From NCBI GenBank assembly GCA_947450365.1, contig CANFVE010000001.1, positions 26,538-90,537 of the forward strand: a DNA stretch of 64,000 bases, given 5' to 3'. Within the stretch, counting starts at the first letter, position 1. Each line of letters begins with the position of its first letter. Positions 16,090 to 59,003 of this stretch are shown here, piece after piece. The position numbers were made by a program, and so were the translations under genes. The notes beneath the pieces were generated by a model. It worked only from the letters and a program-made list of their open reading frames with translations, did not search any database and was not told the origin of the DNA. This stretch comes from Cytophagaceae bacterium (GTDB lineage: Bacteria; Bacteroidota; Bacteroidia; Cytophagales; Spirosomataceae).

Positions 16090-16841
16090 TATTTTTCTGC
16101 CTGAATGAGGATGTAAGGCGCGAAGGCCTTGGTTTGGATGGGGAAAATTTTGAAGAATATTTTAAGGGGGAGCCAACAAGCCGTTTTAAGTATTTTTACC
16201 CACAGGGGCTGTTGTTTTTCATTTTCTAACCACAACATAAATCCACCTGAATAGCTTACCGAGATCTGTTTTAGGCCTAATTTTTCACATTGCCCGTGCA
16301 AAAAATTGATATCCATGCAAGGAATGTGGTGTTTGGCGTAATTTTGAGGATCAAATTGCCGTTGGAACCAGCCATTTAGTCCTCGAAAATTGGGCAAACT
16401 AACAAATAATTGTCCTCCTTTTTTTAAGTATTGAATGTGTTTGGACAGGATTTCTTCGGTATTCGGAAAATGCTCAATGAGGCCATTCGAAATGACTAAA
16501 TCAAACCAATGCAAACCTTGTCCGTCGGGAGCAAATAAATCCTTTTCCCATAGTTCAATCTCTGCGTTTAAATGGTTTGCTTTTTTTAAATCCTCCACGA
16601 TTTTGGGGAGGATGACAAAATCGAGTAGCGTGGATTGAACGCCTAACGCTTGGGTGGCCCAAACGGAATAATAGCCTGGGAAACCACCGATTTCGAGCAG
16701 ATTTTTAACTTGATGTGCCTGAATAGACTGTTTTAATTCACGCGTAAACGGGTAATTGGCAGGAATGGGGAAGGCTAGGCCCACTTTACTCAGCCAGTAA
16801 TTTTTCCAAAAATCGTAGTCGGTTAGCGCTTCTTGTTTCAT
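16089..16841 (-). CDS. Class I SAM-dependent methyltransferase
   Basis: LLEIGGFPG motif I, DLVISNGLIEHF, LKKGG. Confidence 0.82.
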   Translation of the reverse strand: MKQEALTDYDFWKNYWLSKVGLAFPIPANYPFTRELKQSIQAHQVKNLLEIGGFPGYYSVWATQALGVQSTLLDFVILPKIVEDLKKANHLNAEIELWEKDLFAPDGQGLHWFDLVISNGLIEHFPNTEEILSKHIQYLKKGGQLFVSLPNFRGLNGWFQRQFDPQNYAKHHIPCMDINFLHGQCEKLGLKQISVSYSGGFMLWLENEKQQPLWVKILKTACWLPLKIFFKIFPIQTKAFAPYILIQAEK

Positions 16842-18109
16842 TTCTTTTCAAAAATTTCGTGGAGCGTATGGGCGATTCGTTCGGCCGCATGTCCGTCCCA
16901 AAGTGGGGGAATACTGCCTTTTTTGACCTCGCCTGCTAAGATTTTTTCGAGGGCTTGGTAGGTTTTTTGCGGATCTAAATCGGCTAATAATTGGTTTGTG
17001 CCGAGGCTTACGGTCACGGGTCGTTCGGTCGAATCGCGGAAGGTTAAACAAGGGATTCCTAAATAGGTCGTTTCCTCTTGAATACCACCAGAATCGGTTA
17101 AAATAGCTTTGGCGTGACTCATTAATTGAATAAATTCCAAATAACCTAAGGGCTCAGTTAGGATCAGATTAGGAACGGCTTCCATGCGTTTCGTTAATCC
17201 AAATTTATCCATGTGGGCACGTGTGCGTGGGTGGATGGGAAAAACAATGTTGGTTTTTTGGGCGCTGAGTTCCATTAATTCTAGGATGGAATTGAGGCCT
17301 TTTTCGGTGTCAACGTTGGCCGGTCGGTGCATCGTCATCACGATGTAGTCCGAAGTCTGAAGTCCGGAGGCTGGGGTCTGTAGTCCGGAGGCCGGAGTTT
17401 GTAGGCCGGAGGCTGGAGTCTGTAGTCCGGAGGCCGGAGTTTGTAGGCCGGAGGCTGGAGTCTGTAGTCCGGAGGCTGGGGTCTGTAGTCTGGAGGCCGG
17501 AGTTTGTAGGCCGGAGGCCGAAGGCGAAAGGCCTAAGTCGGCGAGGATGGTGCTATTTTTCGCTTTTTCTTGATAGCGTACCAAAGAGTCGATCATGACA
17601 TTGCCGCTGAAAAATACTTTTTCATCGGGCACCCCTTCATTTTTTAAATGGGTGAGGCCACTTTCTTCGGTCACAAATAAATAATTGGCTACTGAATCTG
17701 TCAAAAGTCGGTTTAATTCTTCCGGCATGGTGCGGTCGAAACTTCGAAGTCCCGCTTCCACATGGGCGAGAGGAATTCCCATTTTGATGGCAACCAAGGT
17801 ACATGCGAGGGTCGACGTGACATCGCCTACCACAATAATAAGATCAGGTTTTTCATCCGCCACGATTTTCTCGAAAGCTAGCATGATAAGGGCTGTTACT
17901 TCCGTATGTGAGCCGCCACCGATGCCTAAAAAATAATCAGGTTTGGGTAATTCCAATTGGGTAAAAAACACATCGCTCATTTTGGCATCAAAATGCTGCC
18001 CCGTATGAACGATTTTGGAGGACCAACCCGTTAATTTTTGAATGGCTCGGTGTAATGGAGCGACTTTCATGAAATTGGGCCGCGCCCCGACTACCTGAAT
18101 AACTTTCAT
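16838..18109 (-). CDS. wecB: UDP-N-acetylglucosamine 2-epimerase (non-hydrolysing) with an in-frame tandem-repeat insertion
   Basis: VGARPNFMK, HTGQH, HVEAGLRS, PEELNR, DSGGIQEE, ERPVT; (ASGLQTP)x8 inserted before TMHRPANVD. Confidence 0.95.
   Translation of the reverse strand: MKVIQVVGARPNFMKVAPLHRAIQKLTGWSSKIVHTGQHFDAKMSDVFFTQLELPKPDYFLGIGGGSHTEVTALIMLAFEKIVADEKPDLIIVVGDVTSTLACTLVAIKMGIPLAHVEAGLRSFDRTMPEELNRLLTDSVANYLFVTEESGLTHLKNEGVPDEKVFFSGNVMIDSLVRYQEKAKNSTILADLGLSPSASGLQTPASRLQTPASGLQTPASGLQTPASGLQTPASGLQTPASGLQTPASGLQTSDYIVMTMHRPANVDTEKGLNSILELMELSAQKTNIVFPIHPRTRAHMDKFGLTKRMEAVPNLILTEPLGYLEFIQLMSHAKAILTDSGGIQEETTYLGIPCLTFRDSTERPVTVSLGTNQLLADLDPQKTYQALEKILAGEVKKGSIPPLWDGHAAERIAHTLHEIFEKK
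17348..17536. repeat. Heptamer tandem array (27 x 7 nt, 21-nt higher-order period) inside wecB
   Basis: plus strand reads GTCCGGA/GGCCGGA/GGCTGGA/GTCTGTA/GTTTGTA in register from 17348 to 17536. Confidence 0.97.
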
Positions 18110-18137
18110 TTAAAATATTTGTCGTGGATAATTCCTA

Positions 18138-18169
18138 CAAAGATAAAGGAAAAAGTTAGAAGGCCCGAA
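18138..18169 (-). promoter_or_regulatory. Putative wecB promoter (TTCG-N20-TATCTTTG)
   Basis: -7 box TATCTTTG at 18145-18138; near-consensus -33 TTCG at 18169-18166 within the terminal heptamer of the adjacent array. Confidence 0.5.
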
Positions 18170-18309
18170 GTCCGGAGGCGAAAGGCCGAAGGCATTAGTC
18201 CGGAGGCAAAAGGTGGGAGCCCGGAGGCGATAGGCCGGAGGCATAAGTCCGGAGGCAAAAGGTGGGAGCCCGGAGGCGAAAGGCCGAAGGCATTAGTCCG
18301 GAGGCGAAA
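18163..18309. repeat. Heptamer tandem array (21 x 7 nt, 49-nt higher-order period), left flank of the four-helix-bundle gene
   Basis: GTCCGGA GGCAAAA GGTGGGA GCCCGGA GGCGA(T/A)A GGCCG(G/A)A GGCAT(A/T)A repeated at 18198-18246 and 18247-18295. Confidence 0.95.
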
Positions 18310-18447
18310 GTTAAGTAGTCCGTAGGATTGAGTCGGCAAGTTGAATTTAAAGGATTTGTCAAAATTTCTATTTGGCGTCAAACTAAATTTAAATTATCAA
18401 CATATTGATACAATGAATTTTTTCCTTTTCGTTTTAAAAATTAAACA

Positions 18448-18816
18448 ATGGGGGTCACGAAGTTTGAAGATTTACACGTGTGGCAAAGATCTTTACAAAT
18501 TGCTGTAAAGATTTATCAATTAGTACAATCGAATAGGGATTTTGGATTTAAGGATCAAATTCAACGGGCCGTAACTTCTATTTCAAATAACATCGCAGAA
18601 GGTTTTGACCGAGGGTCTGATCGAGATTTTAAACGATTTTTGTTTATCGCACTTGCTTCTGCAAGTGAGGTACGGTCGCTCGTTCACCTTGGTAGGGAAC
18701 TTGGTTACCTAGATCATGAATCGCATAAACTTCTTGAAAAGGAATTAATTGAAATCAGATATATGATTAATGGCCTATCAAAAACATTAACTCGAACTTC
18801 AGTAAAAAAATTATAG
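18448..18816 (+). CDS. Four-helix-bundle protein (23S rRNA IVP / TIGR02436 family, Avd-like fold)
   Basis: FEDLHVWQRS, DQIQRAVTSISNNIAEGFDR, FKRFLFIALASASEV, LGYL: family hallmark pattern; 122 aa, AT-rich. Confidence 0.9.
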   Translation: MGVTKFEDLHVWQRSLQIAVKIYQLVQSNRDFGFKDQIQRAVTSISNNIAEGFDRGSDRDFKRFLFIALASASEVRSLVHLGRELGYLDHESHKLLEKELIEIRYMINGLSKTLTRTSVKKL

Positions 18817-18874
18817 GTATTTGTTTTCCATTTGATGAATCATGTAAAATACCTACTCGACAAAGAATATTTTT

Positions 18875-19035
18875 TACGGCCTCCGGACTTTCGCCTCCGG
18901 CCTCCGGACTTTCGCCTCCGGCCTCCGGACTTTCGCCTCTGGCCTTCGGACTTTCGCCTCCGGCCTTCGGACTTTCGCCTCCGGCCTCCAGACTTTCGCC
19001 TCCGGCCTCCAGACTTTCGCCTCCAGCCTCCGGCC
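18875..19035. repeat. Heptamer tandem array (23 x 7 nt, 21-nt period), right flank, inverted relative to the left array
   Basis: plus strand (TCCGGAC TTTCGCC TCCGGCC)n = reverse complement of the GTCCGGA/GGCGAAA/GGCCGGA units. Confidence 0.97.
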
Positions 19036-20255
19036 TAACGACTTGCGGCTCTCGAAGAATACCTAAACGCCGCCAAATAATTCCCCAACACCGTATGAAT
19101 ATTAATCTCATTCTCGATGATTTCTCGGGATTTATCACCCATCGTTTTGATCTTGTCAGGCTCATGAAACAGCCAGGTGATTTTGGCAACCAAATCCTCC
19201 AAAGACCCCGATTCAAAATAATGCCCATTGATTCCCTCTTTGACCAAGCGCTTCTCCGTCCCATCCGCCACCGAACAAATCACCGGCTTTCCAAAACACA
19301 TCGCCTCATTAATCGATAAGCCACCCATGCCGGCCAACACATATATGCCCGCCCCCAAACTTATCTTTCCTAATGCCTCGAGTTCATAAATTCCTCCCGA
19401 AAAATGTATATAATCCTCCGCATCCGCGGCCCGAACCTGCGCTTGCAAGGCCGCCATTTCAGGACCATCGCCCACGATTTCCAGCTCCGTTTTTGGAAAT
19501 TTCTTCTTTAGTTCAATCGCCGCCTGGATGAGTAAATCCACTTGTTTCCATTTGACGAGTCGGCCGACGTGCAACAATCGAAACGGATGATGATCCACCG
19601 TGCCCTCTGTTTCTATCTTCTTTAAAACCCTGAAAATTTCATCCGTATCCGGCGAATTGGCCGTCACAAAAACCTTTTCGGAAGGCACCCCATAACTCGC
19701 ATGTAAGGCTCTTGCCTCATCCAGATAGTTAATGTGCGCATCCACAAGATTTGAAAATATGCGCCGAGTTTCTCGCACGATGGCGAATTTCAATTTGGCC
19801 AATATCGAACTACTTTGCTGATGCGCCTGCTGATTTTCCGTGACACCACCCCCCGCAAGATAATAGTCGATCGCTTCTTCGTAATGGGGCACCTGGAATG
19901 GAATTTCCTTGGAAATCAACGCAATGTTTTGCGATCGTAAAAAGCGATACCAAAATGGATAAAAGACAAACGAAACTTGGTAAGGCCAATTGACCATCAA
20001 AATAGTTGGCTTCTCCTGCAGAATCAATTCCCGCAGCCCTTTGAAGAATTTTTTGCCATAATAGGTGGTGTATTCTTCTTGAAAAAAGACCTTAAATTCG
20101 ATGCCCGACTGGCTTTCAAATACCCCTGCTCCCAACGTCGCCCCATTTCCTTTTGGCGCCACAACACAGACTTCCACCCCAAAATCCTTTTGCAATTTGT
20201 TCAAAACCAAATTGTAATAATGGGGCAAACCACCGGCCAACAACATTATCTTCAT
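19035..20255 (-). CDS. Glycosyltransferase family 4
   Basis: LLHVGRLVKWK, VGDGPE, GMGGLSINEAMCFGKPVI. Confidence 0.9.
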   Translation of the reverse strand: MKIMLLAGGLPHYYNLVLNKLQKDFGVEVCVVAPKGNGATLGAGVFESQSGIEFKVFFQEEYTTYYGKKFFKGLRELILQEKPTILMVNWPYQVSFVFYPFWYRFLRSQNIALISKEIPFQVPHYEEAIDYYLAGGGVTENQQAHQQSSSILAKLKFAIVRETRRIFSNLVDAHINYLDEARALHASYGVPSEKVFVTANSPDTDEIFRVLKKIETEGTVDHHPFRLLHVGRLVKWKQVDLLIQAAIELKKKFPKTELEIVGDGPEMAALQAQVRAADAEDYIHFSGGIYELEALGKISLGAGIYVLAGMGGLSINEAMCFGKPVICSVADGTEKRLVKEGINGHYFESGSLEDLVAKITWLFHEPDKIKTMGDKSREIIENEINIHTVLGNYLAAFRYSSRAASR

Positions 20256-58676: not shown

Positions 58677-58705
58677 AAAAGCCTCCGATTCGGGGGCTTT
58701 TTTTT
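58677..58705 (+). terminator. Rho-independent terminator
   Basis: AAAAGCCTCCG-att-CGGGGGCTTTTTTTT after the permease stop. Confidence 0.82.
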
Positions 58706-58713
58706 GGGTGTGG

Positions 58714-59003
58714 TCTTTGGCAATCCTTTTCGATACGATTTGGGCGGGATCTTTGGCAATCCTTTTCGATACGATTTGGGCGGGATCTTTGGCAATCCTT
58801 GCCAATGAAATAGGAGGACATTTGGGAATGGCGAGGTTTGCCAAAGCCAACCTGGCGGGATTTACCTTTGTCAAACCTTGAACCTTTCGTGCTTTAGGAC
58901 TTGCCAGGTTTAGGATTGACAAAGGGGCGGGATTTACCTTTGTCAAACCTTAATACTTTCGTGTTTTAGGACTCGCCAGGTTTAGGATTGACAAAGGGGC
59001 GGA
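58714..59003. repeat. Composite REP/BIME-like cluster: 36-bp x2.4, one 60-bp palindrome, 72-bp x2
   Basis: identical 36-mers at 58714 and 58750; 60-bp CTTTGGCAATCCTT..AGGTTTGCCAAAG at 58787-58846; 72-bp units at 58854 and 58926 with arms CCTTTGTCAAACCT/AGGATTGACAAAGG. Confidence 0.9.

Follow-up and report, generated by a model that had tools for sequence, protein, structure and literature searches.

A four-helix-bundle gene between inverted heptamer arrays in a Cytophagaceae genome: a probable DNA-level cassette

Why should a small gene of the protein family known from 23S rRNA intervening sequences stand between two protein-coding genes, enclosed by two long arrays of heptamers that are complementary to each other? 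The question is raised by a stretch of 64,000 nucleotides (nt), called the window here, from a Cytophagaceae bacterium, a freshwater Aquirufa (assembly GCA_947450365.1, contig CANFVE010000001.1, positions 26,538 to 90,537; genome assembly 2.66 Mb, 42.5% G+C), in which the gene and its arrays fill the space between a GT4 glycosyltransferase gene and wecB. An earlier interpretation made from the letters alone (the sequence-only reading) had proposed either a messenger-level analogue of an intervening sequence, cut by RNase III, or arrays acting as long terminal inverted repeats or inversion substrates. After comparison with related loci, drawn from Aquirufa-labelled records, and with the protein family at large, we give a probability of roughly 55% to a DNA-level cassette that is mobile in evolution and whose protein is probably the partner of heptamer arrays, as RAYT is to REPINs. 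The parts of the cassette and its two borders are as follows.

18159-18334, plus strand: left arm, AG-phased tandem heptamers that repeat at a higher-order period of 49 nt and become degenerate in the inner units; the outer edge is next to the wecB promoter region.
18335-18447, plus strand: interior 5' leader, a candidate promoter or operator, with the motif ATTATCAACATATTGATACAAT at 18393-18414, then TCGTTT...AATTAAACAATG.
18448-18816, plus strand: gene for a four-helix-bundle protein of 122 amino acids (23S_rRNA_IVP; matches to PF05635 and TIGR02436).
18817-18874, plus strand: interior 3' spacer that contains a 9-bp hairpin, TAGGTATTT...AAATACCTA, and ends towards the right arm in an A/T-rich tail.
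18875-19034, plus strand: right arm, 7.5 copies of the 21-nt unit CGGCCTCCGGACTTTCGCCTC.
19035-19037, minus strand: stop codon TAG of the GT4 gene (CTA on the plus strand), abutting the last right-arm unit and in heptamer register.
18138-18145, minus strand: -7 promoter box of wecB, of the Bacteroidota type (TATCTTTG); it lies immediately beyond the cassette edge and belongs to host DNA, not to the insert.

On the plus strand the left arm reads AGTCCGG AGGCGAA AGGCCGA AGGCATT ..., and Tandem Repeats Finder places this array at 18159/18172-18310 as 2.8 copies of a 49-nt unit (7 heptamers) with 92% matches, degenerate units extending to about 18334. The right array is placed at 18877-19033 (21-nt unit, 7.5 copies, 94% matches), and its unit is the reverse complement of AGGCGAA AGTCCGG AGGCCGG. 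Over 75-113 nt the two arrays are 71-77% complementary; the best gapped local alignment of the left arm with the reverse complement of the right contains 108 matches and 35 mismatches and scores 84 against a shuffle mean of 17.8 (z = 28.8), whereas the direct-orientation control scores 18, which is the chance level. The claim of the sequence-only reading that the right array is made of reverse complements of left-array units is thus borne out, and the same holds, to within one nucleotide, for the length of the interior (18311-18874, 564 nt), for the start of the right array at the GT4 stop codon (array to 19034, stop at 19035-19037) and for the heptamer-like end of the GT4 gene, whose last codons AGT CGT TAG put AGTCGTT in register before the array. 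Common to both arms are AGTCCGG, AGGCGAA and AGGCCGG/AGGCCGA, and because these units are ordered differently on the two sides (49-nt against 21-nt period), a helix between the arms would be regularly interrupted. The outermost arm bases are also inverted, GTTAG at 18155-18159 and CTAAC at 19035-19039, which places the GT4 stop codon inside the terminal inverted repeat.

The enclosed protein matches PF05635 with E = 1.5e-32 (112 bits, cut-off 33.8), the only family that the Pfam scan returned, and TIGR02436 ('four helix bundle protein') with E = 4.4e-33. Its closest solved structure is PDB 2gsc (Xanthomonas campestris XCC0516, E = 1.3e-12), followed by 2rld, both of which have five chains in the deposit. 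By profile search the gene is single-copy in the genome.

Is the enclosure of such a gene by inverted arms peculiar to this locus? In all 10 loci of the genus that were examined, inverted arms flank the gene, with units that vary by locus and match between the two sides; AGTCCGAAGGGAAAG, AGTCGCT, CAGTGGG/CAGTCGT and TTAGTCGTGACTGCGTC are examples. The comparison was extended to 73 family loci from Bacteroidota, Patescibacteria (candidate phyla radiation) and other lineages, and in 50 of them the upstream flank, compared with the reverse complement of the downstream flank, scored above every one of the 60 shuffles (median z 6.3); in direct orientation the scores remained at the shuffle level. 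Among 33 upstream arms that were periodic, the period was 7 or 14 in 20 and 15 in 11, and in most family loci the inverted repeat lies close against the open reading frame. A gene within a hairpin is the rule for the PF05635 protein family.

The history of the GT4-wecB site indicates how the gene came to stand there. No PF05635 gene was present at any of the 80 wecB loci compared, and in the 39 other Aquirufa loci with GT4-wecB synteny in which the spacer was measured (27-2099 nt) none contains the gene, so that the cassette at this site is confined to this species. Aligned with the spacers of the closest relatives, whose GT4 genes are 94-95% identical, the window spacer shows homology over the wecB promoter only, and this homology ends at about 18160, which is the outer edge of the left arm. 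A search for remnants of the cassette in the spacers of the two closest relatives recovered only the wecB promoter and a one-sided array of related vocabulary. The -7 box TATCTTTG recurs in most of the longer congener spacers, with an insert or without, and is missing from spacers of 27-32 nt and from several others. Judged from these alignments, the stretch of about 875 bp that separates the GT4 stop codon from the wecB promoter is one inserted unit. The second proposal of the sequence-only reading, long terminal inverted repeats or inversion substrates, gains from this result, as the insertion is bounded exactly by the outer edges of the arms, and also from a flipped interior in a congener that is described below.

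Eleven further Aquirufa loci have a homologous cassette at another site, flanked by hemE and by a divergent upstream gene. The proteins of this second site form three groups that also differ in arm vocabulary, and the window protein is 58-60% identical to those of group A. The window cassette and group A have in common the AGTCCGG/AGG vocabulary and the leader ATTATCAnnnnnnTGATACAAT...TCGTTT...AATAAAnnnATG, and therefore the whole unit is homologous and not the open reading frame alone; the leader motif is kept in the hemE-site cassettes of eight group A loci in spite of the modest identity of the proteins. In the genome of the window itself the hemE site (C1:19917-20033, about 6.5 kb before the window start) is empty and holds only a 44-nt filler, which includes a small hairpin, between two divergent promoter boxes. 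At the hemE site of A. esocilacus HETE-83D (L029, NZ_JBBKXX010000003.1) the gene has a premature stop, giving 95 instead of 122 amino acids, with the arms intact, and may be a decaying copy.

Variation within the species was followed in seven assemblies, the window and six others, the latter taken from nine contigs encoding the identical protein. The gene occupies the same site in the same orientation in all seven assemblies read. Arms of about 150 nt (left) and 160 nt (right) were measured in the window and in L183; the corresponding lengths are about 150 and 139 nt for L182, about 470 and 45 nt for both L184 and L185, and about 56 and 139 nt for both L186 and L187. As the assemblies behind these figures are short-read metagenome ones, some arrays may be collapsed in part. 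Arm lengths thus vary independently, by gain and loss of whole units, between assemblies with an identical protein, and because of this the predicted stem between left and right arms spans from 44 to 124 bp across strains. Between two diverged strain groups (L184 and the window) the open reading frame differs at 1.9% of positions, that is by 7 differences, all synonymous and none non-synonymous, whereas the divergence is 8.2% in the adjacent GT4 gene and 10% in the cassette leader. Since all seven differences are synonymous, the gene appears to be under selection, and the sequences argue for purifying selection on the four-helix-bundle gene while the arms change freely. At 1.9% against 8.2% for GT4, the open reading frame is either unusually conserved or was recently exchanged between strains.

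Inverted arms also invite the question whether the interior is flipped. At the hemE site of one congener (L024, JBJOIV010000086.1) the interior is inverted and both arms keep their orientation relative to the flanks, which is, as read from the sequence, the product that recombination between the arms would be expected to yield. An invertible DNA switch would mean that such recombination flips the gene or its leader promoter at appreciable frequency and thereby alters the expression either of the four-helix-bundle gene or of its neighbours wecB and GT4, as a phase variation of a surface polysaccharide locus. In its favour, the inverted arms have a length sufficient for homologous recombination, the surrounding genes form a glycan-synthesis cluster and the gene has an unusual orientation here. 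We regard such a switch as quite unlikely. The seven assemblies of the species show a single orientation, which speaks against a frequently flipping switch, and the protein of the inverted congener differs by 15-17% in sequence from other hemE-site proteins, so that the inversion is old; moreover, the wecB promoter lies outside the invertible part. A switch driven by an invertase was rejected on the single orientation and on the lack of a recombinase among the neighbours, which are glycosyltransferases, an epimerase and a methyltransferase. On the minus strand this cluster comprises the GT4 gene (19035-20255), wecB for UDP-GlcNAc 2-epimerase (16838-18109), and then a methyltransferase and a second GT4 gene.

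Arrays of the same kind also occur without the gene. In the genome of the window a gene-less inverted array (C19:317-690) directly follows a 5S rRNA gene and its terminator; it has the vocabulary of the cassette (AGGCCGA AGTCCGA AGGCATA ... / ...GCCTCCGGACTTCGGCC), and its right arm is interrupted by the palindrome TTTGGCAAACC...GGATTGCCAAA. Beyond this array, small or one-sided arrays are found at three other places in the genome. One contig starts with 11.9 copies of the 14-nt heptamer-pair unit ACTCCGGCCTTCTG (C43:1-167), and another carries a one-sided array about 200 nt from its end (C56:7000-7100). The assembly seems to break at arrays, and their number in this genome is therefore probably underestimated. 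A relative (G005) has about 27 array sites and one strong copy of the gene.

Do arrays and protein occur in the same genomes? With a pattern of four heptamer units, AGKC every 7 nt, arrays were absent from 5 of 5 genomes of the genus without a strong protein match and present in 14 of 14 with one. A survey of the order (151 genomes, 86 genera) detected PF05635 in 106 genomes, including all 27 that bear the pattern. When the pattern or its reversed form was counted with at least 3 hits, PF05635 was present in 35 of 35 array genomes and arrays were found in 0 of the 45 genomes without PF05635 (Fisher one-sided p = 5e-7, and 7e-5 for genomes of at least 2.4 Mb, in statistics that ignore phylogeny).

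These data also bear on the view that there is no unit at all, and that slippage-prone simple repeats, or hairpins at the 3' ends of host genes, flank an unrelated small gene by chance. In many congeners without the gene, the GT4 stop codon is likewise the starting point of heptamer runs or of complete heptamer hairpins with no gene inside (TAGTCGC..., TAGTCAG..., TAGTCCGG..., TAGTCGCTAGTCGC... and TAGTCAGTGGTCAG..., and in the closest relative TAGTCCGGAGACAGAAGGCAGGAGGC...), arrays occur inside wecB and elsewhere, and heptamer arrays and inverted pairs have been described with no link to a gene (PMC4692102, PMC4679880). Chance juxtaposition would nevertheless have to account for an inverted arrangement that recurs in 50 of 73 loci across phyla, with locus-specific units complementary between the sides and a direct control at chance, for an arm vocabulary that follows the protein lineage, and for arrays that occur in no genome lacking the gene, and we consider it very improbable. 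The GT4-wecB intergenic site also collects several kinds of repeat. A second repeat family consists of palindromes of the type TTTGGCAATCCttccaGGTTTGCCAAAG, often followed by GAGACGCGnnnGCGTC, which stand in tandem at 58703-59002 of the window and also occur in congener GT4-wecB spacers (L116, L118, L126, L128, L130 and L152).

If arms and gene form a unit, are the arms kept for pairing in RNA? Folding of 18140-19060 on both strands gave minimum free energy structures dominated by one long, interrupted helix between the arrays, in which 128 left-right pairs form on the plus strand (-343 kcal/mol, z = -12.7) and 134 on the minus strand (-350 kcal/mol, z = -14.5); each z score refers to 20 dinucleotide shuffles. 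Pairs within arrays are almost nil, because each arm is purine-rich or pyrimidine-rich, so the inter-array fold that the sequence-only reading had foreseen is the one predicted and hairpins within the arrays do not dominate. RNAduplex was dropped since random sequences of 300 x 300 nt gave -120 to -140 kcal/mol and no discrimination, and it was replaced by local alignment against shuffles and by full folds. A further array takes part in longer folds.

17347-17535, plus strand: third array, inside wecB and in frame (ASGLQTP x8 on the minus strand), with the orientation and vocabulary of the left arm.

Tandem Repeats Finder places this array at 17354-17520 (21-nt unit, 7.9 copies). When wecB is included in the fold, the right array is split between 86-92 pairs with the left array and 57-59 with the wecB array, as had been anticipated from the letters, so that in long minus-strand folds the left arm and the wecB array compete to pair with the right arm. 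In other species the same surface loop of WecB bears in-frame inserts from differing repeat families (L103-L106, L109, L113, L115, L117, L120), for instance heptamers such as CGACTAG/CGACTCC or the palindrome GAGACGCG...CGCGTCTC. Because inserts are also found in species without an adjoining cassette, this loop seems to be a repeated landing place for small genomic repeats.

The predicted helix gives substance to an RNA-level intervening sequence, in which the arms would be kept for pairing and RNase III would remove the cassette RNA from the operon message and release or limit the mRNA of the gene. A long helix is predicted on both strands, protein family and build are those of 23S intervening sequences cut by RNase III (PMC4990558), and the RNase III gene rnc is encoded by the host genome. 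In 50 of 77 other family loci both neighbours run in the direction of the gene, with spacers of about 80 and 59 nt that leave little room for a promoter of its own, and the close fit of the inverted repeats to the reading frame in most loci is also as expected. In 14 of the remaining loci the gene is divergent on one side, in 13 convergent on the other side, and in 0 antisense to both neighbours, which makes the arrangement in the window, antisense to both, an unusual one and counts against an RNA-level function here. So does the conserved promoter that wecB has of its own. The conserved leader lies interior to the left arm, and the mRNA of the gene therefore probably lacks that arm. Furthermore, arm lengths are unmatched between strains, 470 against 45 nt in the extreme case. 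In the five strongest loci 23 arm mismatches are compatible with G-U wobble in the sense RNA and 22 in the antisense RNA, and transversions dominate with 48; as far as these sequences tell, neither strand bears a mark of being selected to form an RNA helix. The intervening-sequence interpretation first put forward thus holds for the build, the predicted stem-loop and the PF05635 family, but finds no support as regards arms tuned to an RNA helix, and we judge an RNA-level function doubtful.

Signals for expression were sought in the same region. A consensus scan, which does not model Bacteroidota promoters, called no sigma-70 promoter and no intrinsic terminator in 18050-19150; the 9-bp hairpin of the 3' spacer appears in the predicted fold, and the scan calls no terminator there. 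An Rfam scan of the window gave zero matches at gathering thresholds, rRNA families included.

Insertion, expansion and contraction of the arms, inversion, gene-less derivatives and the tie between protein and arrays at the level of genomes all suggest, from comparison of sequences, that the element is to be understood at the DNA level. We propose that the cassette moves as DNA on evolutionary time scales, with the arms serving as long terminal inverted repeats, and that the protein, whose solved relatives are pentameric, may be a trans-acting partner which recognises, keeps or spreads heptamer arrays, like the single-copy RAYT gene for REPINs. Should a transcript span both arms, which at this locus would require read-through from GT4, the folds predict a double-stranded RNA of 44-134 bp, and cutting of such transcripts by the host RNase III is plausible. 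As with 23S intervening sequences, the cut would part the messages on either side, and it might make the insertion tolerable, without being the target of selection on arm lengths.

Several points weigh against a mobile DNA cassette with a partner protein. The Pfam scan found no transposase, recombinase or nuclease domain in the cassette and its neighbours, and no target-site duplication was seen, the flanks AAAGGAAAAAGTTAG and CTAACGACTTGCGGC being without direct duplication; with neither a transposase domain nor a direct duplication, an insertion sequence or a miniature inverted-repeat transposable element was rejected as the identity of the cassette. The evidence for mobility is confined to presence and absence between species: there is no identical second copy of this single-copy gene that would indicate recent movement, and an identity of 58-60% to the hemE-site proteins means that no recent hop within the genome took place. 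Expansion and contraction of arms are seen through assemblies that may have collapsed arrays in part, and the co-occurrence of protein and arrays was scored without regard to phylogeny and with one heptamer vocabulary in an order in which PF05635 is common (70% of genomes). Finally, a four-helix-bundle protein has no known catalytic activity, and its role in the maintenance of repeats is for this reason an analogy and not a result.

A wider proposal may be stated tentatively, as a possibility that we hold to be less than probable. PF05635 proteins in general might be dedicated trans-acting partners of bacterial heptamer arrays, one master cassette seeding and maintaining gene-less arrays and hairpins across the genome, including those in frame within genes like wecB. 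On this view the 23S intervening sequences would be cassettes of this kind whose landing sites were hairpin loops of rRNA. Since the early 1990s the protein family of 23S intervening sequences has been without a known role, and bacterial heptamer arrays have repeatedly been described without a mechanism; the present locus and its relatives link the unexplained family to the unexplained class of repeats through build, co-inherited vocabulary and co-occurrence. If the link were causal, it would amount to a new kind of gene-plus-repeat system and would explain why intervening sequences are found in rRNA hairpin loops. Cultured Aquirufa that bear the cassette exist (A. avitistagni OSTEICH-129V and A. 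echingensis PLAD-142S6K), and the genus offers natural variants with long or short arms, a flipped interior, empty sites and gene-less hairpins.

How does the cassette compare with known systems? Text searches of the literature found no description of a unit of gene plus arrays, the nearest being PMC4990558, PMC4692102 and PMC4679880. Closest in protein are the 23S intervening sequences that bear an open reading frame. That of Coxiella burnetii, in helix 45, encodes a PF05635 protein and has a 28-bp stem cut by RNase III, its mobility being only suspected (PMC4990558). Like these elements in Coxiella and Leptospira (PMC4990558), the cassette belongs to the S23p/PF05635 family, has a terminal complementary stem around its reading frame and is patchy between lineages. 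Unlike them, it lies between two protein-coding genes and not in an rRNA helix (9, 25 or 45), its arms are tandem heptamer arrays of 150-170 nt instead of a 28-bp stem, and its gene is antisense to the surrounding genes; it is known from sequence, and its excision by RNase III would be by analogy.

The small four-helix-bundle protein also recalls Avd, a pentamer that binds nucleic acid together with a partner enzyme and belongs to the same superfamily as the PF05635 protein. Unlike the Avd systems, this genome (93.6% complete) has no match to the reverse transcriptase family PF00078, and there is no pair of template and variable repeats. Because the genome lacks a reverse transcriptase, identification as the Avd of a diversity-generating retroelement was rejected.

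Resemblance on the side of the repeats is found in Xanthomonas, with heptameric GGGAATC arrays in 70-75 inverted pairs (PMC4692102), and in the TAACTGA direct repeats of Beggiatoaceae, Cyanobacteria and Bacteroidetes (PMC4679880). As here, the Xanthomonas and Beggiatoaceae arrays are intergenic tandem 7-nt units of variable copy number, often in convergent inverted pairs and often near gene ends, whereas the arrays described here stand on both sides of a PF05635 gene and, across genomes, are found together with it. The texts of both reports, searched for these terms and not for associated genes in general, contain no mention of 23S, 'four helix' or 'intervening'.

In logic, as opposed to protein, REPIN-RAYT systems (PMC3116915, PMC3337134) are, by analogy, the closest counterpart. 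Both have a single-copy gene between inverted short repeats and a repeat vocabulary specific to the lineage; gene-less inverted pairs elsewhere in the genome, of which there is one clear case here, and repeats found only where the gene is present may be further points in common. They differ in that the cassette gene encodes a four-helix bundle of roughly 120 amino acids with no HUH/Y1 (IS200-like) transposase domain (Pfam: PF05635 only), and in that its repeats are tandem heptamer arrays instead of palindromes of 20-40 bp; action of the protein on the arrays would be by analogy with RAYT. Should the protein indeed be the partner of the arrays, PF05635 and its heptamers would form a second, non-HUH counterpart of REPIN-RAYT.

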